Virus record (IMG/VR): IMGVR_UViG_2648501802_000002
Reading direction: 5' to 3' (one strand)
From: a virus
Lineage: Duplodnaviria; Heunggongvirae; Uroviricota; Caudoviricetes
Length of the DNA: 64,000 bases
Shown here: positions 3,163-38,099 of the stretch, one piece after another
Layout of the letters: every line of letters starts with the position of its first letter
Position numbering within the stretch: the first letter of the stretch is position 1
Translations under genes and position numbers: made by a program
Notes under the pieces: model-generated
Told to the model about the DNA's origin: nothing
Database searches by the model: none
The model's input: only the letters and a program-made list of their open reading frames with translations

Positions 3163-3351
3163 TAAATATATTATTTTTAATCTTAAATGATTGACAACTG
3201 ACAAGTGACTTGAGTCAGAATCATCACACGCCCGGTACGGATGGATCCCTTTTCAAATATTCCATGGACGGCACAGTCTGAGTACCGGGCGCTACCTTCT
3301 GTTGTATTGCTAAGCCGCCGCTGGTGGCTTTTCTTTTTTATAGGGGGCGAT

Positions 3352-5710: not shown

Positions 5711-5748
5711 GATGCATTTATCTCCCAGATAATATTGTAATATTAAAC

Positions 5749-5997: not shown

Positions 5998-6434
5998 GTT
6001 TTCTCTCCAGCCTGTGCCAAGGCTTCAACTTCCAAATCGTAAGACTCAAACTCATAGTCCTGGTCGTCAACTTCTTCAGGCACTGGCAGTAAATGCCAGG
6101 CTGAGTATATCTGACCATTATCAAAACGCTCCTGGCTGTAGAGCGTCGCAGCTATGAGCGTCAGCGCCGGGCGGTCATAACGGTAAATTTTGCGAACGTC
6201 ACGGTCAACGAGACGACCGAAATTACCATAACCGCGCTCCAGTAATAATTTTTTAATTTCCGGCCAGTATGGGCCATAGCTGCGGTACAGGCGGGGATTT
6301 TTCAGTAATCGCCCGCGTAGCCCTGACAGGAAGAAATCAACGTATTCGTCTTCTGTCTTTCCTAACAACGCTGTACGGAGTACCGCCTCAAGATATGTTT
6401 TATTCGGTTTTATTGTATCAGATAGTGTGGCCAT
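5994..6434 (-). CDS. ulx: Hypothetical phage protein, ulx-like by position
   Basis: 146-aa ORF directly downstream of the darB-like gene on the same strand with 4-nt overlap to the next ORF. Confidence 0.3.
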   Translation of the reverse strand: MATLSDTIKPNKTYLEAVLRTALLGKTEDEYVDFFLSGLRGRLLKNPRLYRSYGPYWPEIKKLLLERGYGNFGRLVDRDVRKIYRYDRPALTLIAATLYSQERFDNGQIYSAWHLLPVPEEVDDQDYEFESYDLEVEALAQAGEKT

Positions 6435-6467
6435 ATTATGCGACGCCCGGCGAACCGGGCGCTCCTG

Positions 6468-22242: not shown

Positions 22243-24158
22243 GCCGCTACCCCCGCTTTCTGGATTGCTACCAGCAGATCAGCCAGGTGGCGAGCTGCGC
22301 CGTTAACCAGCTCTTCGTTTTCCTCAAAACGTCCGGCAGCCTGAAGGGCTGCAATCGCTTCCCGGACATTGCCCCGGGCGTTACGGATCTCCGCCATGTC
22401 AGTGCTTTGTATATCCATCACGTTATTGAGATATTCAATGGCTTTATTAGCCTCTGCATCTGCTTCGCTAACCGTTTCATCAGGCTGTGCCGGGGCCGGT
22501 TCTGGCTGAGTAATCTCACCGACTTCGGCCTGCAATGCATTGATCATGCTCTGCACCATTTTCTCGGTGCCAGCGCCCCCAGGAAACGCAATATTGGGGA
22601 AAGTTTTTTGAAACTGAGTTTTCAGCATTACGCGGAACTCGTCTGGTGAGCTGGTGGCCAGCTCCAGAGCTTTTTGTGCATATTTGCCAAACGGACCATT
22701 AGTAAGTGTCTTCGCCAGGAAGTCGAAAGAATCCTCGCGAGGCAATAACTTCAGGTCGTACTCACTCATTTGCTGATCAGAAAGCGGGGTATCGTAAGTA
22801 GCAATGCCGTAGCGTGCATATTCATAATACGGGTCACCTTCATCAGGGCGCGGCAGAATTGCTTTGTTACCTTCAGGTATTGCGCCAGGGGCCGCCGGAC
22901 GCATTTGCAGGGCATATCGATATGCACCTACAGAGACTTCTGGTTCAGGCGAAGAGCTACCGGTATCCTCCGCTGGTTCAGGCTCGACGTTTTCCGGTTT
23001 ATGTTCTTCTGGTTGGACCAGGTATTCCGATACATTACCCGCTTTATAGGCTTTAAACAGCTTGCCGATCGCATCTGCCATGTCCACACCCTGTATGGAT
23101 TTAGCCTTGATCATGTATACGCTGCCATCCGGATCGGTTAACTGGATATACCCTTCGCCGCCCCCAATGAATTGCTTCATTGATGCACCATTACTGAGCG
23201 TCACTTCCCCGTCCATATGCATACGATTTTTGATACTGGCAAGGCGATCCGTCAGCGCGCGAGAGTGCCCACCAGTCATCCCCGCTGGAGCAATGGTATC
23301 GCGCCCACCAGTGCGATTGAGCTGATCAATCTCCGTCTGCAAACGCTCATTCTCTTCATAAAGAGAATCCGCTTCCGATGCAACAGCGTTAATTTTCTGC
23401 TCCAGATCTGCCTTCTGCCCTTCTACCGCTGCCACCTGATCCGCGAGGTCGCTCATGGCATCCTCTTTCTGGTCACTGTCAGCCTGTAGTTGGGTTATTT
23501 CATCAACAAGGGCTTTTTTCTTCTTCTGCGCACGCTGGAATTTTGCCGAGTTTTTCTCTGCAAGGTTGGCAAGTTTCATGGTGACCTGCGCCAGCGTCAT
23601 ATCACGTCCACTCATCGGAGCAACGGTGTGAGTAACGTCTTTTTTATTCAGTAAGAACTGGAAAGCAACCAGCGTATCGCTATTGGTGATCCGGTTTTCC
23701 GCTGTCGGGCTATGAAACAGAATGCTGATAGTCTGACCATCACTGAGCGGAATAATGGCTGGCAGGACTGGCAGCCCGTTAACGTTACGTGCCCGGCCAA
23801 TTTCAGCGCCGCCGATCGCGCGCGCGCCGCTCTGGGCCACATCCCCCGTTTTATCACTCCCCGCAGAGATTCCGGTACCATTCAGCTTCTGGTTCAATGC
23901 CCGGACAAATGCCTGCATGGTCCGGTGTAACTGCAAACGAGTAGAACTAATCGCCTCCAATAAATCCGTAGCACACCAGTGGATCGGCGTGTCATAGAAG
24001 AACGTTGCCTCGATTTCCTCCAGGGTGTTGGATTCCGTCATCAGATAGCGGTCCTGACCAGCCATTAATGCGCGATATTCATCATCAGTCACCGGCGGGG
24101 GAAGCACGTCAAGCCCCGGCTTAATCGTCACCCCTTTATTGATATTGAACTGTTCCAT
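22239..24158 (-). CDS. darA: DarA-like capsid-internal antirestriction protein
   Basis: 639-aa ORF with central coiled-coil; size and order match recollection of P1 DarA precursor. Confidence 0.5.
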   Translation of the reverse strand: MEQFNINKGVTIKPGLDVLPPPVTDDEYRALMAGQDRYLMTESNTLEEIEATFFYDTPIHWCATDLLEAISSTRLQLHRTMQAFVRALNQKLNGTGISAGSDKTGDVAQSGARAIGGAEIGRARNVNGLPVLPAIIPLSDGQTISILFHSPTAENRITNSDTLVAFQFLLNKKDVTHTVAPMSGRDMTLAQVTMKLANLAEKNSAKFQRAQKKKKALVDEITQLQADSDQKEDAMSDLADQVAAVEGQKADLEQKINAVASEADSLYEENERLQTEIDQLNRTGGRDTIAPAGMTGGHSRALTDRLASIKNRMHMDGEVTLSNGASMKQFIGGGEGYIQLTDPDGSVYMIKAKSIQGVDMADAIGKLFKAYKAGNVSEYLVQPEEHKPENVEPEPAEDTGSSSPEPEVSVGAYRYALQMRPAAPGAIPEGNKAILPRPDEGDPYYEYARYGIATYDTPLSDQQMSEYDLKLLPREDSFDFLAKTLTNGPFGKYAQKALELATSSPDEFRVMLKTQFQKTFPNIAFPGGAGTEKMVQSMINALQAEVGEITQPEPAPAQPDETVSEADAEANKAIEYLNNVMDIQSTDMAEIRNARGNVREAIAALQAAGRFEENEELVNGAARHLADLLVAIQKAGVAA

Positions 24159-24159
24159 G

Positions 24160-24771
24160 TTAATTTCCTGCTTTCAGTTGCTTAAGACGGCGTTTGAGTT
24201 CGCCATTCCGTGCCTTTTCGTTATTGAGTCGGCCCGTCTCCTTATCCAACTTCGCCCGCAAATCTGTGATCTGCTGTTGATTGAAAGACACCGAATTCTG
24301 CGCGGACTTATAAGCGGCAACCACCTGAGCATTCCGCTGTTTTGCTTCTTGCAGGCGCTGAAAGTTGGATTTAACTGCCGGTTTCTTGTCTACCGGATTG
24401 GCAACACGCTTCGCTTTGGCGATCAGTGATTTCTGGAATTTCGCAGAGTTTTTGCGGGCCGCTTGCCCCATGACGGTACCAAGCGTCTTGATATCTGGCG
24501 ACTGTGCGTTAGGAATAGATTTTCCATTCAGTTTCACAGCCGATATATCACCAGTATCGTTTACCTGTATGGCAAGAATTTGTCCGTCGTTAAGAACCAG
24601 TTTTGCGGTTTTAACTTTAACGCCATCTTTCGTTGTTGCGCGGTTGCTGGAGTCAACCTCAATTACCGTAACACCGGTTTTATTGATCGCCGCGATAAGG
24701 GATTTCAGCCCCTTTTCATTAACCTGGTCAAAATCGACCGTTGCATACTTATTTTTCGTCATCTGACACAT
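24160..24771 (-). CDS. hdf: Hdf-like protein
   Basis: 203-aa ORF between lydB-like and darA-like genes. Confidence 0.4.
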   Translation of the reverse strand: MCQMTKNKYATVDFDQVNEKGLKSLIAAINKTGVTVIEVDSSNRATTKDGVKVKTAKLVLNDGQILAIQVNDTGDISAVKLNGKSIPNAQSPDIKTLGTVMGQAARKNSAKFQKSLIAKAKRVANPVDKKPAVKSNFQRLQEAKQRNAQVVAAYKSAQNSVSFNQQQITDLRAKLDKETGRLNNEKARNGELKRRLKQLKAGN

Positions 24772-25192
24772 CCTGTGCGAGATTTATTACGTAACTTCTG
24801 CGGATTTGCTGAGTAACAGGGAAAATCCGATACAACGGGTTAATGAACGAGTCGCCATGCGTAACCATGACGTTGAAATGCCACAGTCGCTCTCCTTTAC
24901 CCATATATTCAGTGGGTATGTACAACCATTCACTGTTTTCGCCCTGTTCAGCCGACGTCAGACAACGTTGTTCGCCTTCAATCACTGTCGTCGGCTTCTG
25001 AACATCGCGGATCCAATATCTGACCGTTGCGCCGCGCAAAAACGGGAATTTAGACCGGTATTTGAACGGCACCCGAATGAAACCCGGTTTAATTTCCACA
25101 TCACCAAGTTCTAAATGCGTGATGTCCTTGCGTTTTAGCAAATAGCGATCGGCTAAGGCTAACGCAAGAACGCATACACCCCAGCCAATCAT
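24749..25192 (-). CDS. lydB: LydB-like protein (putative antiholin/lysis regulator)
   Basis: 147-aa ORF with N-terminal hydrophobic segment, directly downstream of holin-like gene. Confidence 0.45.
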   Translation of the reverse strand: MIGWGVCVLALALADRYLLKRKDITHLELGDVEIKPGFIRVPFKYRSKFPFLRGATVRYWIRDVQKPTTVIEGEQRCLTSAEQGENSEWLYIPTEYMGKGERLWHFNVMVTHGDSFINPLYRIFPVTQQIRRSYVINLAQDVSDDEK

Positions 25193-25518
25193 TTCCCACC
25201 TCCCTTTTTCACCAAACTTGTAAGAACATTCAGAATGCTATCGATATTCACTCGTTTCATCCCTGAAATCACCTCATGACCGTTATTGCTGGCTATCGTT
25301 ACCATTAAGTACGTAATTGATAACTCCCAGCCTTCGTGTTGCCCCAATAGGTACGCCACCGCGCCAGCTGTCACTGCAACAAAGATCTCCGTAACCAATC
25401 CCAACAAGTTGCCAGACTGGCGACCATCTCGGACATCCATCAGGAACGTGCCTATCCCACCAATTACTGAAAGCAGGAGCGCAATAGCAACTGGAGCTAA
25501 TTCCTGTGTGTCAAGCAC
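25189..25518 (-). CDS. lydA: LydA-like holin
   Basis: 109-aa ORF with three hydrophobic helices and charged C-terminus KKGGGK. Confidence 0.55.
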   Translation of the reverse strand: MLDTQELAPVAIALLLSVIGGIGTFLMDVRDGRQSGNLLGLVTEIFVAVTAGAVAYLLGQHEGWELSITYLMVTIASNNGHEVISGMKRVNIDSILNVLTSLVKKGGGK

Positions 25519-25590
25519 AAGTTCCCTCCTACGTTGTCAGGAGGTAATGGTATGCAAAGTAACTTCTCAACCGGTCATGTTACTTGACAT

Positions 25591-25616
25591 CCTCCACGTC
25601 CTTTAGAGCGTGGAGG
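25591..25616. other. 8-bp perfect inverted repeat hairpin immediately 5' of the intron-like element
   Basis: CCTCCACG-(10 nt loop)-CGTGGAGG, 4 nt upstream of the GTGCG start at 25621. Confidence 0.4.
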
Positions 25617-25620
25617 ATGT

Positions 25621-26460
25621 GTGCGCCCAGCATGGGCGCGATCTTGGAGGTGAAAGCCCTCCCGCGAGCTGACCACAGCGAGCGAAAGGAAGTGCAACTG
25701 CGTGAGGGCGGCTAGGCGTGGGGAGGAAGCACGGAATGAACCCGTGAGCCGATGAACAAGAATCGGATATGAGGCGCGATGGAGCAAGGCGAGCAGGCAC
25801 ATCACTGCGAAGCTTTCGTGACAAAGTCGCGTAGATCCGACGGTTGTGCGGGGAAGGATCGCGTTCTTACCTGGGGAGTTCTCGCCTCATGCCTGAAAGG
25901 GCAACGTCGTAAGACGGAGCGAGAAGTCAGCAGAGGCCGTAGTAGTCAGGACTCCGACGAAGGGCCGAACGAGAAGGAAAGCCAAAAGATATGACTCTTG
26001 ACAGGACATTGCGTCAGAAGCCGGGGAAGCCCGGTACGGACCCGCATGCCGGGTGGTGTGGCAGGGGCGCAGCCTTGTGCTCCCCCCTATGCCGATCAAG
26101 CAGAACATTGTGCTGGGCCTCTGACGCATCTCCTTGATGGTCTTGGCATCGTGCTTAAGTGGATTGGTGTCGTCTCTGATAGGCTCATGGAGGCAGAATG
26201 AAACTCAAAAATCCGGGACAGCACGCAAAACAGGCTGCACAAAAAGCGCAGGTTGCGTAGGAGTGGAATCCCGCTCCCAAAAAATGGTGCAGAAGTTGCG
26301 GCAGTGGTCATCCGACGCACTGGAAAATAACAAACCCGCCGTGACCAGAATCGGAGGCCTGAGGGAGTGACCGTAAAACCGGATAACCCAGGCAGCAAAT
26401 ACCCGCTGGATGAGGCATGGTTCCGGCAGATAATACCGAAAACCGCCAGACACACTGGAT
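25621..26460 (+). mobile_element. Group II intron 5' fragment (domains I-III-like RNA, no intact maturase ORF); 3' boundary approximate
   Basis: Starts GTGCGCCCAGCATGGGCG (compare Ll.LtrB GTGCGCCCAGATAGGGTG); shares motifs GCGAAAG, AATCGG, GTCGC and CGTAGTAGTC...GAAGGG with LtrB domains I-III; GNRA-rich; only short ORFs on either strand. Confidence 0.5.
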
Positions 26461-26516
26461 AATCAGTAGAAATAACCCATTAAAATCATTATAATAATTG
26501 GGCACATTATTATATT

Positions 26517-27080
26517 ATGCTGAATAATAGAGACATGAATATTAATGAACTTAAAGACTGTATTCACTATGAAGTAATCGGTAGCGAGCGTCCTTTCTCC
26601 TGGCGAAAGGCAATTGTTCGCGCAATAAAACATAGAAGAGTTCGTTATTTATTTTGGTGGCGCATAGCCAAATACCTTTTTGATAAAGGCGGATACTGTC
26701 GGAAGATTGCGGGGAAAATGGAACGTTTCATTCTTGATAAATATAGTGTAACAGTCCCTTTAACTGTAAATATAGGGAAAGGCTTTGATATTTCTTATCT
26801 CAACGGTGTTGTTATCGGTCACAAAGTAACCATTGGTGAAAATTGTTCAATAAAACCAGGGGTAACTATTGGGCTACGTGGTGATTTTAATGATATGGAT
26901 ATTGTTATAGGACATAATGTGACCATTGGTTGTAATGCCACCATTCTTGGTGGCAAAGTGCGTATAGGAAACAATGTCACAATAGGTGCTCATGCATTGG
27001 TATTGCATGATATTCCTGATGATTCAACATTCATCACTAAATTTCAGTCTGAAGTTATCTGCTCGTCCTCTTGCACATAA
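26517..27080 (+). CDS. Hexapeptide-repeat (left-handed beta-helix) acetyltransferase, AT-rich cargo
   Basis: 187-aa ORF with tandem hexapeptide repeats ([23 protein letters not shown]...[34 protein letters not shown]); 3' end overlaps the convergent tfa stop by 37 nt. Confidence 0.7.
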
Positions 27081-27661
27081 CCCTGATTCATCAGCTCTGG
27101 CCATACGATATCCGGAGCTGTACTGGTGTCAATTCGACTCACTAATACTCTGTATTTTCTCCAGGAATCCAGTTGTGAATTTTCCTCGGTTGTTGCTATT
27201 TCAAGATTAACTGCATCCTGCAGAATTGCGATGTTATCTGTTGCCTCCTGAATCAACCTTGCCTTTTTCTCTTCCGCTTCCCGTATCCGAAACAGTTTTT
27301 CTGCTTCCTCATCCTTCACCCAGGATACGCCGTCCCACTTCTGATACTCCCCTGCTGGCGACAACCAGGTGACATTCTCTGGTAACGGTCCGAGTTCAGA
27401 AATAAACAACGCGTCCCCCGATGCCACGTCATAGACCGTTTTACCACGATGGTCTTCAACAATAATCCATGATTCATTTTCACTGTTAAAAACTGCCACA
27501 AAGCCAGCAGGAATTTCCGGTGGGGCGATATCTGTAGAATTAGCTGGTAGCCCTGTATGAGGTGGAATATATGCGTCACCTTCACCAATAAACTCATTAG
27601 TTCCGGCGAGCAGGTTATAAATTTTTACAGTACGTGATTGTTCACTCATTCTGAATGCCAT
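27044..27661 (-). CDS. tfa: Tail fibre assembly protein (lambda Tfa-like) with altered C-terminal tail
   Basis: 205-aa ORF; [60 protein letters not shown]... nearly matches lambda Tfa; last about 16 residues differ. Confidence 0.8.
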
Positions 27662-28552
27662 TATGCAAGCCTCACAATATAATTAAATGCGATGTTTTTA
27701 ACGGTGTTTTCCGAGTTACCAGCAGCGTTAACGGTGATGGTGTGTCCATGTGAACCAATCGCAACAGAGTGCGTATGAGCGCCAATATCAACTGTATGTG
27801 CATGCGCCCCTGCACTTGCAGCGGTGCCTGATACTGAGTGGGTGTGTGCACCAGAAGAAGGCACAGTTCCATTCCCCACCACAGTGCCGCTTGATGAGCC
27901 ATCAAGCCAGTCGAAATTCATACCGCCACCATCTGGTCTCCTTAATGGAACGGTATGAGTATGTGCGCCAGCACTATTTGCAGTACCAGATACATTGTGG
28001 GTATGTGCACCTGTGTTATTCGTTGATTTAGTACCGTAATCAAACGAAGATGTGGTTTTCGTACCCAAATCCGTATTGGATGCGCTGGCGCTGTGGGTGT
28101 GCGATTTAATGCCATCCTGTTCCAGAGACAATACGTCCCGACCACTGGCGGGTTTGCCCTTGATTGTCCAGCCACGCATATCCGGGATCACGCCTGACGG
28201 ATAAGCGGCTGCAAGTTTCGGGTATGCAGATTTGTCAAAAGTCTGTCCCTGCATCAGGGCGTAACCAGACGGCACAGTATCTGATGGCCACGGATGCGGA
28301 ACACCAACAGGAAGGACCTCAATATCCCCGGAACCATCAAACGAAACGTTATTAATTTTACGGGCTGTTTTCAGCTTTGTAGCCGTTGAGGCATTGCCGG
28401 ACAGCTCACCAGAAATGCCACCAACAACTGTTAGATCACCAGTTATTGTGCCGCCTGAACTTTCCAGTTTTTTAGCAACATCACTCTTAATAGAGTCGAT
28501 TTCTTTTTTTCAGATTAGTTATATCTGCTGGTATCGTTGTCACTGTTGCCAT
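27661..28552 (-). CDS. Tail fibre receptor-binding protein (lambda Stf C-terminal domain-like); frame broken at an A7/T7 run
   Basis: ATG at 28552 ([16 protein letters not shown]) then frame switch at T7 run 28504-28510 into ...[40 protein letters not shown]...[11 protein letters not shown], which matches lambda Stf C-terminus. Confidence 0.6.
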
Positions 28553-28725
28553 ATTAATTCCTTACGCCCATTCCCGCAGCGGTTGTTCTAATTGAACTTC
28601 AAAACCATCAAACATTTGTTGTTTCAAACTGTTGTTTAAAATACGAACATTAACGAAGAAGCCATCATTTTTAATCACTGTTGGTTCTTCGTTCTCGCCG
28701 TTTGGTATTTCGGTATATGTAACAC

Positions 28726-30153
28726 CTACAACATCAAGAAGAATGTTGTTTTGCAGCTCTTCATTATCGTGGTGCCGAGTTCTCTTAAACCAAGGTATTG
28801 GATAACAGCAAGGACGCTTGTTTTGGACAGAATATCGCGACCGACTGACGTTAAGTCAGTCTGAGAAACAGTGTCTGTACCGGTAAAGTACGGCAGTTTA
28901 TTTGCGCCTGTAGCAAGACCAGCAAGCGCGGTTAAAGTTGCATCCAGAGGCTGTTTGCCTGCCAGCGCATTTGTCATTGTTGTCGCAAAGTTCGGGTCAT
29001 TACCAAGTGCTGCGGCAAGCTCATTCAGGGTATCAAGAGCTTCTGGTGATGAACCAACCAATGCGGATATGGCAGCTCTTACATAAGCAGTCGTAGCAAT
29101 CTGCGTATTATTTGTGCCCTGCGCAGCCGTAGGCGCAGTAGGGACTCCCGTTAATGCAGGGCTTGCCAAAGGCGCTTTGAGGGCTAGGGCATTGTTGATA
29201 GTTGTGCTGAAATTCGGGTCGTTATTGATCGCAGCAGCTATTTCTTTAAGCGTATCCAGTGTGCCAGGTGCACCGTTGATAAGTGCCGTTATAGCTGACT
29301 TAACAAAGGCTGTATTTGCGATCTGCGTGCTATTTGTACCTTGCGCTGCCGTCGGCGCGGTTGGCGTTCCTGTCAGACTCGGGCTTTCTATTGGCGCTTT
29401 GGTATCAGCAAGACCTTTTACAGACTTAACGGCTTTAGGGGTAGCCGCCATTGTTTCGCTGTCGCTGTTAGTTTCGCTACTGAGCTGAACTAATCCCTTT
29501 TGCGTTGTGCTTGCATCCTGTGCCGTATACTTGCTTTTCGCCAGATCGTAGGCTTTTTTAGCTGCCAGCGAACTTGCAGCAACATCACTTCTGCTACTGG
29601 TTACAGAGTCTGAAATATCAATGCCGATCGTGCGGTTAATACGCTCGGATGTATCAATCATCTCCTGGGTAATGGCTGATACGCCAGCAGGGATATTCAC
29701 CGTACAAACAAGCAGCTCTCCATCTCCTAACTGATATGAATCGGTATAGGTTCTGGCAACAAATTCAGCCGCATGAATATGTGACGCGGTATTAACCTGA
29801 TAGGTATCCTCTCCAAGGAGGTATCTTCCCTTCAGCACAATTGCATATTTCTTGCCTTCACTAAGTGCAAGAGAAATATCCTTACGGTGCCGAATAGTTA
29901 CCTGGTAGAATTCACCAATATCCACTGACGCAGCGCCAGCAGTTTTATCACCATCCACTGAGGTGATTAACAGGTTCATACCACCGCCAGGCTTCGGCAG
30001 GAAACCGGCATAAAACCCAGGATCAACAATTCCCCTGAATTTTCGGTTTAGCGCGGCTGACAGATATGGTTCGTGGTATTGCACATCAGCCACCAGAGCC
30101 AGTGACTCGGGCGATGGGTAAGTAACTGATGTAACAACTGTAACGTCATTCAT
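28726..30153 (-). CDS. Tail fibre protein, constant part (P1 S / lambda Stf middle-region-like)
   Basis: Start at ATG 30153 (MNDVTVV...); contains fibre repeats GTPTAPTAAQGTN.TQIANTAFV and ...TALAGLATGANKLPYF...GRDILSKTSV as in lambda Stf; frame ends 12 codons after the crossover site. Confidence 0.6.
   Translation of the reverse strand: MNDVTVVTSVTYPSPESLALVADVQYHEPYLSAALNRKFRGIVDPGFYAGFLPKPGGGMNLLITSVDGDKTAGAASVDIGEFYQVTIRHRKDISLALSEGKKYAIVLKGRYLLGEDTYQVNTASHIHAAEFVARTYTDSYQLGDGELLVCTVNIPAGVSAITQEMIDTSERINRTIGIDISDSVTSSRSDVAASSLAAKKAYDLAKSKYTAQDASTTQKGLVQLSSETNSDSETMAATPKAVKSVKGLADTKAPIESPSLTGTPTAPTAAQGTNSTQIANTAFVKSAITALINGAPGTLDTLKEIAAAINNDPNFSTTINNALALKAPLASPALTGVPTAPTAAQGTNNTQIATTAYVRAAISALVGSSPEALDTLNELAAALGNDPNFATTMTNALAGKQPLDATLTALAGLATGANKLPYFTGTDTVSQTDLTSVGRDILSKTSVLAVIQYLGLRELGTTIMKSCKTTFFLML
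28773..28798. other. Din-family DNA invertase crossover site (gix/cix/hix-like 26-bp dyad) inside tail fibre gene
   Basis: TTCTCTTAAACCAAGGTATTGGATAA: 12-bp inverted half-sites around a central AA; lies where the fibre constant region ends. Confidence 0.5.
28885..29420. repeat. Tandem repeats of about 180 bp within tail fibre gene; coordinates approximate
   Basis: Protein-level repeat (...PTAPTAAQGTN.TQIA.TA.V..AI.AL...P..LDTL.E.AAA..NDPNF.TT..NALA.K.P) occurs twice, with matching DNA repeats. Confidence 0.4.
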
Positions 30154-30164
30154 CAAGCATATCC

Positions 30165-30599
30165 TTATGCTATAGTCGTGTTGATGGCCATAACTGCGGT
30201 ATATGTTTTTCCCACATACAGCGAGTCTTCCTGAACACAAATAATTGCGATGGGCTTATTCTCGTTATCCAGAACAACCAGAGTGTTGAATGGATAGTTT
30301 TTCCCTTCCTGCAACTGGCTTTGATCAAGGTCCATTCGGACAGTAATTATCCCGCCAGAGTAGGTTGGGACGAGGTTGATGGTGCAAAATTGACTGGTCA
30401 GTTCTGCCAACTCGAAAGTCTTTGGCAGTTCTCCAATGTCATAAGTACCATCTTCATTTTTGGTAACCAGCGAACTGGTGCCGAAAACGGCCTTGCTGAT
30501 TAAAAATCGAGAGCCTTTGTTAATGGACGATTCAGCGCGTCGCTGATAGTAATAATCCAACAACTGACTCTTATAGAGATTTGTTGAGACGTCAGACAT
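30165..30599 (-). CDS. Tail fibre-associated protein (P1 R-like by position)
   Basis: 144-aa ORF immediately upstream of the fibre gene. Confidence 0.35.
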   Translation of the reverse strand: MSDVSTNLYKSQLLDYYYQRRAESSINKGSRFLISKAVFGTSSLVTKNEDGTYDIGELPKTFELAELTSQFCTINLVPTYSGGIITVRMDLDQSQLQEGKNYPFNTLVVLDNENKPIAIICVQEDSLYVGKTYTAVMAINTTIA

Positions 30600-30677
30600 G
30601 ATTTTCCCTAATCAATGTTGTGAAGCCTCATTGTAAGAGAAGTAACTTGTCACCCCGCCCTGCGGACGGGGTAATTG

Positions 30678-31517
30678 TCAGGCATCGCTATCCAGCAGCA
30701 AATCATCTGCGCGGGAGCGATCAAACGTAGGCGTTGCTTTCACAATAGTGCCGCCCGGCGTTGCAGTGATCGGGGCACTAATCGACGTAACTCCGGCAAG
30801 CGAAGTTGTATCCGAAGTTTCAAACCAGCAGTACGCTTTTTCGGTATCAGAAATCTCGTTCAAAGTGATCATGTCGGCCTGTTCATTTACAACAACCGAC
30901 AAATAGAGCGTAAGCCCATCAAACACTATATGCAGTGGCAGTAGAGGCTTTACGAACTGATTAAACTTTCTGAGAATTTCTTCTGTAATTGCGGACTGAT
31001 CTATCGTGCCAGTAATACCCATTGTCCTGGCCAGGTCGTTTATGGGAATACTGATCATCCCTCTGGAAGTCAGAAACATCTCGCCGAATGTGCCGCCAGT
31101 AGTCTCCAGTGTGCTTTCTGGTATTAGAACTGTGCCATAGGGATGACGCTCAAGGTCCACCGGTGCATATATCGGATCCCATAAAACAGAAATACCGTTA
31201 AATTCGCGGTAAATTGTCTGGTTTATAGGACGTTCAGTTCCCTTAAAGTGGATCTCATCAAGCCGCTGTTGTAACAACATCGGAACGGAAGATGAGTTCG
31301 AGGTTCTGATAGTAAAGAACTGGCCAAGTTCATTTGTCCTGGTCTCCAGATCCTCCTTGCTCATGGAGAAAATAGACTTCCGGTTGGTAATTCGCTCCAA
31401 CCATGGGTCAACAAAGGTGTCCATCATTGACTGAACCAAATCAGCCAATGATTTATAGAGCAATGACTTTTGCTTAGCTGATGTAAGCCGGTTATTAAAC
31501 CAGGAACGCTGCATCAC
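30678..31517 (-). CDS. Baseplate/tail structural protein
   Basis: 279-aa ORF in tail module, overlapping stop/start with upstream gene. Confidence 0.35.
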   Translation of the reverse strand: MMQRSWFNNRLTSAKQKSLLYKSLADLVQSMMDTFVDPWLERITNRKSIFSMSKEDLETRTNELGQFFTIRTSNSSSVPMLLQQRLDEIHFKGTERPINQTIYREFNGISVLWDPIYAPVDLERHPYGTVLIPESTLETTGGTFGEMFLTSRGMISIPINDLARTMGITGTIDQSAITEEILRKFNQFVKPLLPLHIVFDGLTLYLSVVVNEQADMITLNEISDTEKAYCWFETSDTTSLAGVTSISAPITATPGGTIVKATPTFDRSRADDLLLDSDA

Positions 31518-32947
31518 TCCTCCTCATACGAAATATTAAAGGTGGAGCTTTCTGTATCCAGATAAACGAAATCGTAAAAGCCGTTGGACTCATTCCACTC
31601 GACAAATTCCAGATAAAAGTCGCGGAAATAACCCAGCGTTTCGATAAACGCCCAAACGTCTTTTTTCTTAATCAGGATGTACTTTCCGACGCGGTTCGGA
31701 TCAAAGAAAGTTGAGTCGCGCCCAAATTTTGTTTCCAGTGCCGACTTCAGCTCATCGGTCACATTCTCAATGGTCAGGCTTGCCGATATCCGTCCGGTGA
31801 TGGTTATCTTAAATGGTAGTTTTCTGACCTCTTTATAAGAGAATTTCTTGTTCAGTTCATTCGGTACCTTCTTAAAGGCAGTCAGGATCATTTCTTCAAG
31901 CTCTGACTGGCTTTTATTTGGATGCCATCCTGAAATAAATATCTTATTGATATTCTGAACATTATAAGCACCATCTAATTTCTCTTGCTGGCCTTCGCCC
32001 CATGCCTTTACCCAGGACAGCCCCGGGATGTTACGAACCAGAAAATACGTATAGTCCCCGCCCCATACGACCTGATCATCATAGGCAAGGTAATATTGTG
32101 CACGGTTACGTGTGATCTCCGTTGTTTCAGCATCGGTACCTGCGGTTATAGGTGTCGTTGTCTTAACTGAAATCAAATTAGCTAAATCAGCCGCAGAATC
32201 GACAGGCGTCAGGTTTTGGCCAGCAACCAGGGTTATATCGCCGTTGGTGCACCATACCTTAAGCGTAATTGTCGAACCTTCTGGCGGTATTTGCCCAATT
32301 AGCCCATCGCCGAATCGAACCCCCAACTGCTCGGATGGTTTATAAAACTCAACGTAGACCTGGCTTTTACTACCGGCTAACCGGAACATAGTGCTGGAAG
32401 ACCACTGCGTGGTCTTCCCATCGGTTGTCACGAATACTTCCAGCTTATAGCAGACAGCAGTAAGAGCCTTTGATAACACGACTTCCAGAAATTCTTTGGC
32501 TGCCGTAACGGTATATGTCACCTCCTGGATTTCCAACTGTGCCACTTCTACCGTACCGGTGCCGTCAACCAACCTGCATACATCCATAGTCATGTAAGGG
32601 TACTGGTCGTCAGATATTAAAGGCATGTTTTTGGGGATTACCGCTGGGGCATCTTCACTTGTGGCGGTGATCTCAATCATCCCCGATGACGGTGTTGGCT
32701 TGGTACCAACATAACTGTTCGTTTCTGCCGCAGCCAGGATAGAGGAACGCCGCGTCGCGGTCGATATAAAGCCTTCAGCCAGCGCCGCATCGGCATACTG
32801 AAAGCACCTGTAGACAATCTGGGTAATAAACAATGTCAGCATCGAGACAAATTGAGAGCCGACAAACTTCGACCAGAATGAATCTTTCTCGACAAGCTCT
32901 TCAAACTCTGCACGAATACTGTCTTTAGTCGGTGTTGTTTTACTCAT
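31514..32947 (-). CDS. Baseplate protein (J-like)
   Basis: 477-aa ORF in tail module between sit-like and fibre genes. Confidence 0.4.
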   Translation of the reverse strand: MSKTTPTKDSIRAEFEELVEKDSFWSKFVGSQFVSMLTLFITQIVYRCFQYADAALAEGFISTATRRSSILAAAETNSYVGTKPTPSSGMIEITATSEDAPAVIPKNMPLISDDQYPYMTMDVCRLVDGTGTVEVAQLEIQEVTYTVTAAKEFLEVVLSKALTAVCYKLEVFVTTDGKTTQWSSSTMFRLAGSKSQVYVEFYKPSEQLGVRFGDGLIGQIPPEGSTITLKVWCTNGDITLVAGQNLTPVDSAADLANLISVKTTTPITAGTDAETTEITRNRAQYYLAYDDQVVWGGDYTYFLVRNIPGLSWVKAWGEGQQEKLDGAYNVQNINKIFISGWHPNKSQSELEEMILTAFKKVPNELNKKFSYKEVRKLPFKITITGRISASLTIENVTDELKSALETKFGRDSTFFDPNRVGKYILIKKKDVWAFIETLGYFRDFYLEFVEWNESNGFYDFVYLDTESSTFNISYEEE

Positions 32948-33303
32948 AGCACCACGTCCTGTGTGATAGTTATATCCCTGATACGAATGGATATTTTCAA
33001 CTTATCAAAAGCATCTCCCTCGGCTACTGACAAGCCAGAAATCGGTATGTCAGGTAAATCTACCGTCAGTTTTTGCAACAGCATTGCCTCAACCGCAATT
33101 TGAACATGCGACAAGTTGGTCGGTTCGTGTTTAAACTGCGGTAAAACATTGCCCCATGACGGATCTCCGTATACCTCACCCTGATAAGTGTTTAGCCACT
33201 CATATAAACGAGCGCCCCAGGCCTCCTCCTGGGACTCATACGTTTTTACGCCGGATAACTCCAGCGTCAGCAAAGGATCAATTTCGTTATTGTTGGCCAT
33301 CAA
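32944..33303 (-). CDS. Small baseplate-associated protein
   Basis: 119-aa ORF translationally coupled between sit-like and baseplate genes. Confidence 0.35.
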   Translation of the reverse strand: MMANNNEIDPLLTLELSGVKTYESQEEAWGARLYEWLNTYQGEVYGDPSWGNVLPQFKHEPTNLSHVQIAVEAMLLQKLTVDLPDIPISGLSVAEGDAFDKLKISIRIRDITITQDVVL

Positions 33304-36300
33304 TCAACTCTCGCGTAGTCATTCATCAACGGATCATCAATTGACAGTGGCACCGTGCGCATAACGCCCGGTTGAGGCGTGCTGACCTTTACGACAGTTC
33401 CCTGGCCTTTCGCCGAGTCTTTAGTGTGCTCTTCAATCCTGGCAAGCAATGAGGTCATCTGCGCAAACAGCCGCTTCGTTTCACCATCAAGTGAAACGGT
33501 ATTATCAGCCAACTGCATTGTCGGCTTGGCACCAGAGCCGCCAAGGTCACTAATAACCTGTCCGTCTATCTGCATACGACCGGTTGGTTGCTGCAAATCG
33601 TTGGCGGCAGTCGTCACCTGGGACGTGGAGGCTGGTTGAGGAGAGTTATTTGAGCGCATTCCCCGGGCATTAATGAGTTTGTCATACAGCCCATCAATCC
33701 CCATTTGTGCACCGAGTTGGTCAAAGTAACTTGAGTTGTTTGCTACCGGACGTGCCTCTTCAACTGGCATAGGTGTATCAACATACACATTGCCAGCAGC
33801 CGTTGCGGTTCCCCTTCCTCGTGCACGTTCTTCGAGGGTTCCCTGAACGACTTCCCGACGCATCCCCCGACCATTCATGAATTTGTTGACCAGATCGTTA
33901 ACGCCAACAGCATTACCGATTTTGTCTACCAAACCGCCTTTCTCAAACGGGCTATCACCAGGGGTAAACGCCAGACCAGTAGACTGATCGATAACGGCGT
34001 TATCAGGCAGTGGTCCCCTCACTCCATATTGCGCCCCACCCTGTGCTCCTGCTCCAGGTGTATAGATTTCACCACCTAAATAGCGAGCACGATGAGTATT
34101 GACCTTGATCGCGTACTCACGGTTTTCTTTCGATAAGTCACCTGTGCCTTTTTTCCACTTATTGATAGTGCCAAACCCAGCATTATATGCAGTGATGGCC
34201 TCGTTTAAGTCTCCATTGGCTTGCTTCAGATACTTGCTCATGAGAAGAGCCGCAGCTTCTGCCGATTTCACAGGATCAAATGCATCCTGTTCCGATATCC
34301 CTGTCTCTTTACGAGCAATACTCGTGAACTGGAACATCCCGAGTGCGCCACCACTTAACTTTCCATCTGGTGATCTTGTAAGCGGAGACTTTGCGTTAGG
34401 ATCCCCTCCTGATTCAGTTGCCGCAATCGAGTAAAGAGTGCCTTCAGGAAGGCCATATTTATTCTCTAGTTCAGCAAAATACGGAGCCAGCTTATCCAGA
34501 TTTGCCTTACCTTCAGCGCCAAGGCTTCCGACTTTTACATCTAAGTTGCCATTGTTGTAGGTATCCGCAGCTTTCTGAATGTCATTCCTAGTGCCAGTAG
34601 TATTAAGCGACGATGATGATGAGCTATTTTGACCAATAGCATTATCAATTTTCTGCAACGCTCGATTGCCCGTTTCTACGGCATTTGCATTGATAATCTG
34701 ATTGGCAGTTTCTTTAACTGTTTTATTGCTATCTTTCGCCGTCTCTAGGGATGCATTTACAACACGAGTGACAATATTAGCCTTTTTAGGGGTATATTCA
34801 GTCTTAGGAGCATTGTCCTCCTGACTTTCTTTAGCTGGTGTTTTTAATTCAGGTGTAACCTCTTTCGCATCCGCTTTGTTGACTAGCTTTGATGCAACCC
34901 AGGCCACAGGGGTGCTCTGAACAGCGGCATCGGCAACCTTACCAGGAAGCTCTTTTGCGGCATTCCATAGATTACTACCAGCCTCTTTAATGTATTTTCC
35001 CGGGTTCTTAATGAAATCAATTGCACTATCAATTGCATCACTGAAAACCTTTTTCAGGTTATCGACAGTAAAGAAGTCTTTGATGGCGTCTAATTTTTCG
35101 TTCAGACTCTTGGTTGTGTCACTGAACCAGGCTGAAATAGCATCGCCAATCTTGGCTGTGTAATCGTTGAATGTTGTGGATATGGTGTCACCAAGGTTAG
35201 AAATATATGTTTCTAAATTGGTAATCCCACTATCAATGGCCTGGGCAATACTTTCCGTCGAAAATGATTGCAACATATTGCCGATATCCTCAAATCCAAG
35301 TGATTTGAGAACGCCACCAATGGCATTGCTAATACCAGATACCAGTCCTCCCATATCGAGAACGTTAGCCAGTGTATAAGCCGCTTTTTGCTGAAAAGAT
35401 GGATCTTCCCCATCCTTAAGCCCAAAGGTCCGACGTTGTGCTTCTGTATCATTCCAACCGGTTACCGCATCATAGATACCTCCAGCCACCGTGCCGACTA
35501 GCGGAATTGCGCGTAAAGCCCCCTTTGCAAAAGCCTTAACACCTAGTTTCTCCAATCCCTTAGTTGCAAGTTTTCCGGCACCGCGAGTAGCCAATTCGCC
35601 AGCTTCTTTGGCAGCAGCTTTTTTCCCACCAAAGCCCAATAAGCTTGCAACTTTTTTTATACCTAAAGCGCCTAGTGCCATCGAGCCAACTTTCTTTAGT
35701 GCCCCACGGCAAAAAATAAGGGAAGCAATACCACCGGCCCCCTTCCCTAACAGGCTAAATAATTTGGACAGCAAGCCGCCCTTCTTTTTCCCGGTGTTTT
35801 TGGCTATCTGATCAAGGGCGCTGAGAATCTTGTCATTGCCCTCTTTAATTTCGCTGGTCTGATCCTGAAGTTCCTGAACCGTCCGTTTTTGGGTGTTAAC
35901 CTGAACGACATCGGCACTACTTTGCGATTTACGCCTAAAAAAACCTTTTCTACGGCTGTTATCGTCATTGCCACGAATCACATCGGCAATTGACTTTCTG
36001 GCACCATTAAGCGAACCGCCAACTTCTTTTGATATTCCGCCAAGCTCCTTTCCTGCTGCCCACAATGGACCAGCAACGGCATAACCTAAAGCATCGACGG
36101 CACGAGTCTCTGAAGGGTTACCTATGCCTTCAGCTACTTTTGACAGTTTTTTTAATAAACCCGATTCAGCATTTAGACGCTCATCATCCTCTTTGCGCCT
36201 AGCTTTTTCAGCACGTTCAGCACGGGCATCTTCCGCTGCGGCCTTACTCCCTGACTTCCCAATAAAACGACCACGCGCATCGCGTTGGTTTTGGCTTTTT

Positions 36301-36728
36301 TGCGCACCGCCTTTTTGACCGAACATTTCGCGAGCGTGTTCGGCTGCTTCGGTCCGTTGTGCCTTTACATCCTCTGGTATAGCCTTCCTGCGTCGTTTTT
36401 TACCCTTTGGTGTGGTTGATTTGGCCCGCTGTTCCTGTTGAGCAACATCTTCCTGAACTACACGAGAAACGTCCCCTAAGTTAAGCCGTTTCATTGCCTC
36501 AACAATAGGGTCCACTGATGGCGCATTGGCCACAAAGTCTGGCCGTGAATTTTCGATTGTGCGATTTAATGCCGACACACTGCGAGAGACAGGATCAACA
36601 GTTGCAACGCGCCCCCCTTTCAAATCTTCAACAGCTTCCCGGATACCTGCAAGCTCTTCCAGCTCTTTTGCGCTGGCGGTTTCAACTGTCCTTATAACAT
36701 CGTCAATGTTGGCGTTTTTTCGTTCCAT
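33300..36728 (-). CDS. sit: Sit-like tape-measure/injection protein with soluble lytic transglycosylase domain
   Basis: 1142-aa ORF; Gly/Ala/Lys-rich repetitive centre; SLT motifs ATESGGDPNAKSP...GALGMFQF...AYNAG; size matches recollection of P1 Sit. Confidence 0.6.
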   Translation of the reverse strand: MERKNANIDDVIRTVETASAKELEELAGIREAVEDLKGGRVATVDPVSRSVSALNRTIENSRPDFVANAPSVDPIVEAMKRLNLGDVSRVVQEDVAQQEQRAKSTTPKGKKRRRKAIPEDVKAQRTEAAEHAREMFGQKGGAQKSQNQRDARGRFIGKSGSKAAAEDARAERAEKARRKEDDERLNAESGLLKKLSKVAEGIGNPSETRAVDALGYAVAGPLWAAGKELGGISKEVGGSLNGARKSIADVIRGNDDNSRRKGFFRRKSQSSADVVQVNTQKRTVQELQDQTSEIKEGNDKILSALDQIAKNTGKKKGGLLSKLFSLLGKGAGGIASLIFCRGALKKVGSMALGALGIKKVASLLGFGGKKAAAKEAGELATRGAGKLATKGLEKLGVKAFAKGALRAIPLVGTVAGGIYDAVTGWNDTEAQRRTFGLKDGEDPSFQQKAAYTLANVLDMGGLVSGISNAIGGVLKSLGFEDIGNMLQSFSTESIAQAIDSGITNLETYISNLGDTISTTFNDYTAKIGDAISAWFSDTTKSLNEKLDAIKDFFTVDNLKKVFSDAIDSAIDFIKNPGKYIKEAGSNLWNAAKELPGKVADAAVQSTPVAWVASKLVNKADAKEVTPELKTPAKESQEDNAPKTEYTPKKANIVTRVVNASLETAKDSNKTVKETANQIINANAVETGNRALQKIDNAIGQNSSSSSSLNTTGTRNDIQKAADTYNNGNLDVKVGSLGAEGKANLDKLAPYFAELENKYGLPEGTLYSIAATESGGDPNAKSPLTRSPDGKLSGGALGMFQFTSIARKETGISEQDAFDPVKSAEAAALLMSKYLKQANGDLNEAITAYNAGFGTINKWKKGTGDLSKENREYAIKVNTHRARYLGGEIYTPGAGAQGGAQYGVRGPLPDNAVIDQSTGLAFTPGDSPFEKGGLVDKIGNAVGVNDLVNKFMNGRGMRREVVQGTLEERARGRGTATAAGNVYVDTPMPVEEARPVANNSSYFDQLGAQMGIDGLYDKLINARGMRSNNSPQPASTSQVTTAANDLQQPTGRMQIDGQVISDLGGSGAKPTMQLADNTVSLDGETKRLFAQMTSLLARIEEHTKDSAKGQGTVVKVSTPQPGVMRTVPLSIDDPLMNDYARVD

Positions 36729-36809
36729 GATCTTATCGCCTACCGTTTCGGTTTAAGTTTTTCTTCCAGTTTCTCCAACAGGAAAAACGCATAGGATTCA
36801 GTAAGCCTT

Positions 36810-37550
36810 TCAGCGTCCTGAATCGGTATACCCCCATACAAAACCAGGTTGGACACTAAGGTCTGATAGCTTTTCAATCCCCACCTGTGGAATGAAGTCG
36901 GTAGCCCGAAAGGGCACCCACAGACGGGTATATGCACCCTCTGTGGACTCCTTTTTATCCTGATTTGGGCATTTATGCGGCGGGAGACGAAGACGCATTT
37001 CACCTTTATCGATGTAGCACGGCAAACCATGTTCGAGCTTTTCATGAGCCAGTCGGATGTGTGCCGCCAGCTTCATAAATTCAGTATCAATGGCCATCCG
37101 TTTAATCGTTTCATAACGACGCTCAGCCTGATCTTCACGAGTACCGCTAACATCGTTATAAAGCTCACACTGATAAGCGAATTCCCAAAAACGCAAATCA
37201 ACGATCGCTTCTTTGAATTCCGCGTCGTCTTCAGGTGGCAATGCTGCACGGCGCATCTCCAGCATTTCCATTGCCCAACCATCAAGCGGCACGATACGCC
37301 ATTGATAAGGCACTCCCTCTACAGACACCTCAATATCGTCAATGAACGGTTCCGCTTCCAGGACCTGGATATCTTCAGCCAGGGCATTCATATCGCAATC
37401 GTAATAATGCTCTTTACCGCAATGTTTACAGGTGTAGGTGAATGTCTCGACCGGTGTTTCACGGGAGCCGGTAAATATCCACCATAACGCGGTAATCCGG
37501 TCCTGCGCCGTCCATGTCAGGGGATCATGTTTCGCGGGTTCAGCCAGCAA
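36810..37550 (-). CDS. Hypothetical protein at the lambda/P1-like junction; no ATG start as sequenced
   Basis: 246-aa ORF begins at TTG directly after the truncated stf stop; contains CKHCGKEHYYDC; may be 5'-truncated. Confidence 0.3.
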   Translation of the reverse strand: MLAEPAKHDPLTWTAQDRITALWWIFTGSRETPVETFTYTCKHCGKEHYYDCDMNALAEDIQVLEAEPFIDDIEVSVEGVPYQWRIVPLDGWAMEMLEMRRAALPPEDDAEFKEAIVDLRFWEFAYQCELYNDVSGTREDQAERRYETIKRMAIDTEFMKLAAHIRLAHEKLEHGLPCYIDKGEMRLRLPPHKCPNQDKKESTEGAYTRLWVPFRATDFIPQVGIEKLSDLSVQPGFVWGYTDSGR

Positions 37551-37555
37551 GGCTT

Positions 37556-38036
37556 TTAAATACGCGCTGCCGCCTGTGCGCTGTTAGCTGCATTCGTTTC
37601 TGAGGTTTTCGCCGCGTTCTTTCGATGATGCCGCTGCAGTTTCGGATTTCTTTGCCGCCGCTGCGCTCTGAGAGGCGGCTTCAGCGTTGCGTGCCGCTTC
37701 TTCCACCATTTCCTCAAAACGACGCAATGCCTCCGGCATGACATCATCTTCCGTCATGGCACCGAGAAAATCATTCAGCGTACCTGGTCTGGAACCTTCA
37801 TAGACGGTAATGGTCCCGGCATGTGAAGGCGGAAAACCTTCAACCAGCAGGGTGACGCTGTACTGACCATACTCAACATCCATGCTGTAACGCCCGGCTT
37901 CATCCGGATTTTCAGAGGCCACCGTGTTCACCAGTACCGTGGTGCTGTTACGCTTTGCCTTCAGTTGAATAGTGCAGTTCTGTATTGGTTTTCCCGCACC
38001 ATCTTTCAGCACACCTGAGATTTTTACTGCTGCCAT
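37556..38036 (-). pseudogene. stf: Side tail fibre stf, N-terminal fragment only, truncated and frameshifted
   Basis: MAAVKISGVLKDGAGKPIQNCTIQLKAKRNSTTVLVNTVASENPDEAGRYSMDVEYGQYSV... matches lambda Stf N-terminus; frame breaks after ...AAASSKE and an alternative frame ends ...KTSETNAANSAQAAARI-stop at 37556. Confidence 0.6.
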
Positions 38037-38046
38037 ATCCACTCCA

Positions 38047-38073
38047 CAAAAAAGCCGCCTGAACCGGCGGGCT
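38047..38073 (-). terminator. Candidate intrinsic terminator after lom
   Basis: Minus-strand hairpin CCGCC-GGTTCAG-GCGG followed by CTTTTTTGTGG. Confidence 0.35.
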
Positions 38074-38099
38074 GTCATAACACTGTGTTACCTGGCTAA

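Follow-up and report, generated by a model that had tools for sequence, protein, structure and literature searches.

Analysis of a 64,000-nucleotide stretch of viral DNA (IMG/VR record IMGVR_UViG_2648501802_000002; hereafter, the window) identified a 26-bp sequence in its tail-fibre locus as a probable relic cixR site of the P1 Cin switch, carried by a decaying P1-like prophage. We assign this reading, in which an inherited and non-working site records a two-layer history leading to a dead fibre, a probability of about 0.85. The site would have been inherited by descent within the P1-like prophage and would no longer operate in recombination, and it presumably survives because it is also coding sequence (VIQYLGLRE, the end of the constant part of gene S). 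The finding is one of ordinary prophage decay. The features involved are the following, with positions referring to the window:

25579-26516, plus strand: 938-bp filler, where P1 has lydC-cin-cixL-Sv'-U'
26517-27080, plus strand: hexapeptide-repeat acetyltransferase gene (Pfam Hexapep), annotated 'serine acetyltransferase'
27044-27661, minus strand: tfa, tail-fibre assembly chaperone (Pfam Caudo_TAP, 2.3e-39; phrog_105)
27661-28552, minus strand: hybrid distal fibre gene, with an N-terminus of L003 type and a collar and His-rich receptor-binding C-terminus of the type found in the cin-less lineage
28331-28423, minus strand: conserved fibre box, putative place of homologous crossover between two parental fibre types
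28424-28771, minus strand: foreign 348-bp patch of AREA_494-plasmid type, replacing about 1.4 kb of the S variable part
28562-28771, minus strand: headless phrog_1361 remnant (function unknown), codons 24-92 and stop, without a start codon
28726-30153, minus strand: truncated tail-fibre gene S, the constant part (Sc) plus 14 nonsense codons, 475 aa (967-1181 aa in relatives)
28771-28772, no strand: blunt junction private to this sequence, lying 8 bp beyond the edge of the 26-mer and 20 bp away from the central AA
28780-28805, no strand: cixR, Cin crossover site, its minus strand coding for the end of Sc
28792-28793, no strand: central AA dinucleotide, the strand-exchange position in P1 (P1 annotation mapped by alignment)
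30165-30599, minus strand: gene R, which precedes S in the P1 fibre operon (syntenic with P1 R-S and 95% identical to it)

The sequence TTCTCTTAAACCAAGGTATTGGATAA at 28780-28805 is identical in 26/26 positions to the annotated P1 cixR, and its half-sites TTCTCTTAAACC and TTATCCAATACC flank a central AA in the 12-2-12 imperfect dyad that characterizes the 26-bp cix and gix sites of the Din family. It agrees with P1 cixL in 22/26 positions and with Mu gix in 21/26, and presents one mismatch to the TTNTCNNAAACCNNGGTTTNNGANAA consensus. The 26-mer has a single match in the window, with 0 expected from shuffled sequences, and it is present with 26/26 identity both in the relative L003 and in a cin-less plasmid. 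The site closes the Sc of a P1-like tail-fibre gene S, which is encoded on the minus strand. The annotated crossover of P1, between positions 36480 and 36481 (7023/7024 in the P1 locus L001), was placed on the central dinucleotide through an alignment that pairs L001 7001 with window position 28770. These alignments, and the position of the site at the Sc/Sv boundary, uphold the proposal of the initial annotation that a genuine Din-family crossover site lies where the fibre constant region ends; the 26-mer is real, and its actual end at 28805 falls 5 bp past the one originally assigned.

From 28772 towards higher coordinates, the window shares 95-97% DNA identity with Sc from P1, L003 and L005, and the S product (MNDVTV...LGLRELGTTIMKSCKTTFFLML, followed by a stop) matches the phrog_454 tail fibre over residues 1-465, as well as Pfam Phage_fiber_2. 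Beyond cixR the Sc frame meets an out-of-frame gene fragment, reads ...VIQYLGLRELGT and reaches a stop 14 codons past the junction and 17 codons past the site, confirming an early stop for which a distance of 12 codons had been claimed. At the junction, identity of L003 type ends at 28771 and identity of Sc type begins at 28772, and the conserved Sv-proximal flank has been lost in the window alone among the aligned sequences. Approximately 1.4 kb of the S variable part is exchanged here for the 348-bp patch (1401 bp separate the equivalent points in L005, and 1590 bp in L003). As a result, S is 475 aa long and lacks a trimerisation or receptor domain at its C-terminus.

In a megablast search of complete E. 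coli genomes, positions 28380-28771 were 97-99% identical to 19 E. coli plasmids and no chromosome was matched. The donor type of the patch is represented by AREA_494 (NZ_CP123334) and by 48-kb plasmids of the P2-tail type (e.g. NZ_CP070136), in which a small 92-aa gene is followed by a distal fibre gene (MATVTT…) and tfa. The module is complete in these plasmids, and AREA_494, which retains cin and cixL, has it within a Cin-invertible segment. All that is left of the module in the window is 69 small-gene codons together with the 5' end of the distal gene, specific to the patch as far as 28424 and followed by the crossover in 28331-28423. The second frame that had been taken for a 65-residue tail (...HDNEELQNNILLDVVGVTY...QPLREWA and stop) does exist and comprises 69 codons (28565-28771), but it is not an alternative fibre C-terminus. 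It corresponds to the 3' part of the 92-aa phrog_1361 gene, matching L003 6182-6391 within an annotated CDS at 6182-6460, and the first 23 codons, with the start, have been lost. The phrog_1361 match is full length (E = 1.8e-35), the ORF listing of the window contains no ORF at the remnant, and searches of Pfam, NCBIfam and PDB sequences for the function of the 92-aa protein returned no matches.

The alignment of L003 type (28331-28771) and that of L005 type (24001-28423) overlap only in the conserved box at 28331-28423. Both breakpoints are visible in the sequence and private to this element, and they suggest that a homologous crossover in the conserved box and an illegitimate join 8 bp from cixR put 348 bp from another fibre module in the place of about 1.4 kb of variable part; from their arrangement we infer the order of events, in which an extra A would later have shifted the frame of the distal fibre gene. 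This gene, which matches Pfam Collar and Phage_fiber as well as phrog_295, presents a +1 frameshift in an A-run (T7 at 28504-28510, versus T6 in L003), and encodes 21 aa and a stop as written or, with one A removed, a 296-aa ORF. From an S without its C-terminal domain, a headless phrog_1361 gene and a frameshifted receptor-binding ORF, we infer that the element cannot make functional fibres. The earlier suggestion of a fibre locked in one orientation hence understates the damage, as no invertible segment is left and the fibre is, by its sequence, predicted to be broken and not merely locked. Adsorbing particles are unlikely to be formed from this element, which is therefore a poor candidate for transducing its own cargo.

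Only the present sequence shows the private junction, and the same is true of the homopolymer frameshift; the junction at 28771/28772 was not found in complete E. coli genomes, PLSDB, GTDB representatives, IMG/VR or JGI metagenomes. It could hence be argued that this junction, and perhaps also the T7 run and a second illegitimate junction at 37564/37565, are assembly or sequencing errors, and that the real fibre is intact and of parental type, with the site still an orphan cixR. Both illegitimate junctions are absent from all other sequences searched, fibre genes are repeat-rich and hard to assemble, and the frameshift falls within a homopolymer. Misassembly by repeat collapse, however, joins sequences through shared k-mers, and the two sides share here only GTG or CGC. 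Furthermore, on its left the patch ends in a conserved box with a clean homologous crossover, which is what real recombination would produce, and the patch carries SNPs of its own relative to all 19 plasmid copies. We consequently regard an artefactual truncation as improbable, while granting it some weight.

A Din switch comprises an inverted partner site a few kb away on the same molecule, an adjacent serine invertase, a Fis-dependent recombinational enhancer (located inside the 5' part of cin in P1) and the in-frame joining of a constant 5' part to alternative 3' parts, and none of these elements was found in the window. No second crossover site was detected in the 64 kb, whether the 26-mer was searched with as many as 3 mismatches allowed or a degenerate Din consensus with as many as 4; the same consensus scan recovered both sites in P1, L003 and JL22. 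The best tblastn match of the P1 and L003 Cin proteins on the window had E = 1.1, and blastn with the P1 lydC-cin-enhancer-C-segment DNA (L001 1787-7000) matched only the cix site and the fibre box. The pattern scans and tblastn thus bear out, for the 64-kb window, the initial claim of an orphan site with neither partner nor invertase nearby. The degraded recombinase noted at 2-259 is indeed a pseudogene fragment, the C-terminal portion of a serine recombinase interrupted by an internal stop, but it is not a cin remnant: it is of resolvase type and lies 28 kb away, within a cargo island flanked by cra and ref, and a relative likewise has it annotated as a pseudogene. The gene at 26517-27080, whose 187-aa product has a size fitting for an invertase, was rejected as a candidate on account of its hexapeptide acetyltransferase identity; its matches to EpsC/CysE/WcaB-like NCBIfam models all fall under the family cut-offs.

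The comparison with the P1 C-segment system outlines what has been retained and what has been lost. The window shares with P1 the identical 26-bp cixR, located likewise where Sc ends and read in the same frame, as well as the upstream operon genes R, 16, bplA, pmgA and sit (approximately 95% identity). It differs from P1 in lacking cin, the enhancer, cixL and the C segment, and its homology ends 22 bp inside the would-be invertible segment. The Mu G segment (gin/gix) shares the same 26-bp site family and the same logic of fibre-tip switching, but has two inverted sites and an adjacent invertase where the window has one site and no invertase. The Min system of p15B is another switch of this type.

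A closer parallel is provided by cin-less P1-like plasmids (E. coli elppa9 plasmid unnamed5, NZ_CP083486; 1579; MINF_9A). In these, lydC-cin-C segment has likewise given way to the filler, the acetyltransferase gene, tfa and a fixed fibre tip, a single cixR is present, and identity to the window amounts to 97% over 28772-31000. The flank at 24001-28423 is 98.35% identical to NZ_CP083486, the one plasmid of this lineage that was checked over its full length (94,363 bp). The whole plasmid contains one cix-type site and no Cin by either tblastn or annotation. Its fibre ORF is intact, reading across the site to give 1181 aa, and next come tfa, under the annotation 'tail fiber assembly protein', and the acetyltransferase gene. 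The window presents the replacement block and the single cixR without a continuous full-length S: in contrast to the uninterrupted 1181-aa S of the cin-less plasmids, it has 1401 bp swapped for 348 foreign bp, plus the frameshift. In the first layer of the history, which the comparison shows to be lineage-wide, lydC-cin (with its enhancer)-cixL-Sv'-U'-U-Sv was swapped for a filler of 0.9 kb, the acetyltransferase gene, tfa and a variable part that is fixed, yielding an intact one-site fibre gene without an invertase. P1 identity ends at 25578, immediately left of the filler, which holds a 5' fragment of a group II intron at 25702-25965 (Rfam group-II-D1D4-3, 95.5 bits; D1D4-1, 46.8 bits) and is found in 29 E. 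coli genomes at a coverage of at least 80%. The acetyltransferase gene is convergent with tfa and overlaps it, and at least 80% of 26400-30300 is covered by 26 complete E. coli records. Orphan cix sites are not unusual; a full invertase is absent from seven of the 12 IMG/VR loci that have the same 26-mer and at least 5.5 kb on its Sv side. JL22, considered as a functional cin-less comparator, was discarded because cin, cixL and cixR are still present in it, and it illustrates only the variability of the region.

Din invertases (Gin, Cin, Hin, Pin) complement one another, and a related lambdoid prophage of another strain has pinR beside its fibre genes. An active switch, with a partner site and invertase outside the window or with a Pin-type invertase of the host acting in trans, can hence be envisaged, but it is very improbable. 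The distance of cin and cixL from cixR is 4-5 kb in P1-like genomes, an interval that the window covers completely and in which neither is present; the fully checked relative NZ_CP083486 has no partner site or Cin on its whole replicon. With a single site there would be no inversion, even with a Pin-type invertase in trans. Nor would an inversion bring anything to expression, as the gene that follows the site is not in frame and has lost its start.

Intact relatives divide this region into S, the 92-aa protein, a 365-aa distal protein and tfa, and low-level transcriptional slippage is possible at A-runs. A short S, restricted to Sc, could thus work with a separate distal receptor-binding protein read by slippage at the A7 run, but we give little credence to this two-piece arrangement. 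The S of the relatives keeps about 490 (L003) or 315 (L004) residues past the site that are missing here, the 92-aa gene that is complete in them is incomplete in the window, and S ends in 14 out-of-frame residues, a layout seen in no other sequence. It is likewise very doubtful that orphan cix sites serve as docking points for Pin- or Cin-type invertases of co-resident prophages, acting in trans and capturing fibre-tip cassettes intermolecularly. The junction 8 bp from the site would then be the scar of a failed capture, but the breakpoint misses the crossover dinucleotide, and at its other end the patch was joined by ordinary homologous crossover. Finally, Cin-mediated deletions and fusions at quasi-sites (cixQ) were reportedly described in P1 by Iida and co-workers in 1984-87, and the junction is strikingly near the site (8 bp), but a Cin- or Pin-made deletion between cixR and a quasi-cix site in the phrog_1361 gene is essentially refuted by the breakpoint position, 20 bp off the central dinucleotide at which serine invertases exchange, with canonical cixR sequence retained in the two half-sites and for another 8 bp towards Sv, and no cix resemblance at the other parental breakpoint (L003 6385-6420).

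Under the preferred reading of a relic cixR, the weight of these results falls mainly on annotation. The 26-mer should be labelled as cixR (relic), S as a truncated pseudogene, the '65-residue tail' as a phrog_1361 gene fragment and the distal fibre gene as frameshifted. The locus also provides a small, clean case of the loss of the Cin host-range switch in P1-like phage-plasmids and of fibre rebuilding via crossovers in conserved boxes, both of which have already been described for the P1-like group (PMC6906374, PMC9603915), where lydC-cin-Sv'-U'-U-S is one of eight hypervariable regions (PMC9603915).

The assignment of the element to the P1-like group (Punavirus) is supported by the synteny darA-hdf-lydB-lydA … S-R-16-bplA-pmgA-sit-pmgB, and by 95-99% identity to P1 and P1-like plasmids over 1-25578 and 28772-37564. 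The majority of the other P1 genes in the window are intact, and any decay is therefore recent. Decay elsewhere in the element is seen at 37564/37565, where pmgB is interrupted and continues illegitimately into a lambdoid prophage. This neighbouring prophage was rejected as a source of the patch, because the patch has no nucleotide similarity to the related lambdoid L006 and its megablast matches are all on plasmids. L006 presents the same layout of stf, a gene of about 93 aa and a distal fibre gene.

The 26-mer TTCTCTTAAACCAAGGTATTGGATAA occurs once in the window, at 28780-28805, where dinucleotide-preserving shuffles predict no matches even at three mismatches. It comprises half-sites TTCTCTTAAACC and, as reverse complement, TTATCCAATACC, which agree at 8 of 12 positions and flank a central AA. 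The sequence is identical to annotated P1 cixR (26/26), with 22/26 matches to P1 cixL and 21/26 to Mu gix, and its central AA (28792/28793) is the annotated P1 crossover point. The window constitutes a P1-like phage-plasmid from 1 to ~37564, and from 28770/28772 rightwards it presents 95-97% identity to Sc, the constant part of the P1 tail fibre gene S, continuing into R, 16, bplA, pmgA and sit. The initial annotation had described an invertase crossover site resembling gix, cix or hix; by sequence, position and descent, the 26-mer is cixR, beyond merely cix-like. The two reading frames reported at the site, one running through …SKTSVLAVIQYLGLRELGT to TIMKSCKTTFFLML and a stop, the other ending in …HDNEELQNNILLDVVGVTYTEIPNGENEEPTVIKNDGFFVNVRILNNSLKQQMFDGFEVQLEQPLREWA and a stop, are also present. 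Retention of the site presumably reflects its role as coding sequence for a conserved peptide. The genes at the site locus lie on the minus strand, and the features considered here are as follows.

2-259, plus strand, C-terminal part of a resolvase-type serine recombinase
25579-26516, plus strand, 938-bp filler in place of lydC-cin
26517-27080, plus strand, acetyltransferase gene
27044-27661, minus strand, tfa
28552 to 27661, minus strand, hybrid distal fibre gene
28424-28771, 348-bp patch
28780-28805, cixR
30153 to 28726, minus strand, truncated S

The claim that the site lacks a partner and an invertase was borne out. A mismatch-tolerant scan with a degenerate Din-site consensus, which picks up the two sites of P1, of the cin-positive plasmid NZ_CP123334 (strain AREA_494) and of JL22, returned 28780-28805 as the sole match in the 64-kb window at up to four mismatches. 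No Cin gene was found there by tblastn with Cin (best E = 1.1), and blastn with the P1 lydC-cin(+enhancer)-C segment DNA returned only the cix site and a short fibre box. The site is hence an orphan cixR, whether or not the junction discussed below is real. Two candidate invertases were discarded. The 187-aa product of 26517-27080 fits in size, but is a hexapeptide acetyltransferase. The recombinase at 2-259, which has an internal stop (…GKYRG*QADQ…) and is annotated as a pseudogene in the relative NC_017653 ("frameshifted; internal stop"), is of resolvase type and unrelated to cin; the cargo island that holds it has genes for an ester cyclase, a GlxA regulator and an MBL hydrolase and is flanked by cra and ref.

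According to PMC9603915, eight regions are hypervariable, lydC-cin-Sv'-U'-U-S among them. E. coli elppa9 plasmid unnamed5 (NZ_CP083486) matches window positions 24001-28423 at 98.35% identity. Its fibre gene forms one uninterrupted 1181-aa ORF passing through the same 26-mer; tfa and an acetyltransferase gene in convergent orientation come next, and cin is missing. The whole 94,363-bp plasmid contains a single cix-type site; tblastn at E up to 1 detects no Cin on it, and its annotation lists no serine recombinase. At least 80% of 26400-30300 is covered by 26 complete E. coli records, and the filler is carried by 29 genomes. The exact 26-mer was also identified in 77 IMG/VR contigs, 12 of which extend at least 5.5 kb on the side of Sv, the variable part of S; five of these encode a full Cin and cixL and seven lack a full invertase, providing independent support for the orphan cixR as a lineage trait and no peculiarity of the window. 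The locus is of the same kind as the P1 Cin/C-segment system, cut down to one of its four parts: the crossover site is present, and no partner site, invertase, enhancer or in-frame variable part was found in the window. It is a member of the cin-less P1-like lineage, differing from it by its broken S gene, and nothing in it is new in kind.

The filler includes a 5' fragment of a group II intron, especially at 25620-25965 (Rfam D1D4-3, 95.5 bits; D1D4-1, 46.8 bits), which begins with GTGCG at 25620 directly after a hairpin (CCTCCACG…CGTGGAGG); neither D5-D6 nor a reverse-transcriptase ORF was detected in it, and all listed relatives (8 full-length matches) lack RefSeq annotation for it. The acetyltransferase gene converges on tfa with a 37-bp overlap. 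Its product (EpsC/CysE/WcaB-like) falls under every NCBIfam cut-off, and its position beside the fibre genes suggests, speculatively, an enzyme modifying surface polysaccharide (the receptor) rather than one of cysteine biosynthesis.

The conserved Sv-proximal sequence left of the site, encoding LGTSGEKIPLLSTANTW…, is kept over at least 80 bp in P1 cixR and cixL, NZ_CP123334, the 48-kb plasmid NZ_CP070136 and the cin-less plasmid, and, as checked over 12 bp, in 72 IMG/VR loci. The window retains just 8 bp of it (28772-28779), and at 28771/28772 identity changes to another sequence. Positions 28331-28771 are 97.5% identical to NZ_CP123334 5952-6391, which takes in the last 210 bp of a gene for a 92-aa product and the start of the gene for a 365-aa "phage tail protein". 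The 92-aa product belongs to phrog_1361 (full-length match, E = 1.8e-35), a family of no assigned function, and its module with the distal fibre gene is shared by 19 E. coli plasmids, which include P1-like ones and ones of ~48 kb with P2-type tails. The 65-residue tail initially read as the end of the fibre is thus a remnant of this separate gene, codons 24-92 without the first 23 codons and the start, and the ORF listing of the window contains no ORF for it. Since both parental types align over a 93-bp box (28331-28423), the left end of the patch marks an ordinary homologous crossover; a blunt illegitimate join forms the right end. Relative to the elppa9 type, 348 bp stand in place of 1401 bp; relative to the AREA_494 type, 1590 bp are absent.

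An artefactual origin of this junction would be consistent with its absence from 5,426 complete E. coli genomes, 72,556 PLSDB plasmids, GTDB representative genomes, IMG/VR and JGI metagenomes, all five collections searched. A second unique illegitimate join, with CGC microhomology and found in no complete E. coli genome, lies at 37564/37565 (context 36810-38078), where P1 pmgB lacking its 5' end meets approximately codon 157 of a lambdoid stf (side-tail-fibre) gene. Beyond it, lom, J and the remainder of a full lambdoid tail cluster extend to 64000. Apparently the P1-like element has fused with a lambdoid prophage on the chromosome, unless the contig is chimeric. Repeat-collapse misassembly, however, would leave a shared k-mer, and the joins share only GTG or CGC, making an artefact at 28771/28772 improbable and favouring genuine events in an element that is decaying and probably integrated in the chromosome. 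Strand exchange by serine invertases takes place at the central dinucleotide; the canonical sequence here covers both half-sites plus eight bases beyond them towards Sv, placing the break 20 bp from the exchange point, and the other parental breakpoint bears no cix resemblance, so the junction is not an invertase product.

The truncated S encodes 475 aa (967-1181 aa in relatives), ends in 14 out-of-frame residues and lacks a C-terminal domain. The hybrid distal gene carries T7 at 28504-28510 (A7 on the coding strand), compared to T6 in NZ_CP123334, the sole copy read directly of the 19 plasmids. As written, it encodes 21 aa before a stop; minus one A, it yields a protein of 296 aa that has a collar domain and ends in a His-rich receptor-binding part. 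The T7, which frameshifts the gene, may stem from a genuine mutation or from an error in sequencing, or it may be a tract prone to slippage. Judging from these sequences, the element would be unable to make a functional fibre. The fibre, initially considered locked in one orientation, is better described as having lost its switch and had its gene truncated, the orphan status of the site standing.

Related arrangements were observed elsewhere. NZ_CP070136 represents an unrelated class of phage-plasmids, ~48 kb in size, whose baseplate genes are of P2 type. It has the terminal part of Sc, including a cix-like site (7987-8012, 25/26), and also the same S/92-aa/distal fibre/tfa module (5132-8838), directly adjoining repA; no invertase is annotated within the 12 kb examined. 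The IMG/VR contig IMGVR_UViG_2690316068_000001 presents exact cixR-type 26-mers at 91-116 (minus) and 4098-4123 (plus), inverted and separated by 4 kb, in the places of P1 cixL and cixR, and no Cin was detected in the 13.7 kb covered. In the C segment of NZ_CP123334, weak cix-like 26-mers at 3244-3269 and 5783-5808 (four mismatches to the consensus) form an exactly inverted pair inside the two opposed fibre genes. The pair may simply belong to a longer inverted repeat, or it may be a secondary crossover site of the type that multi-site systems such as p15B Min possess.
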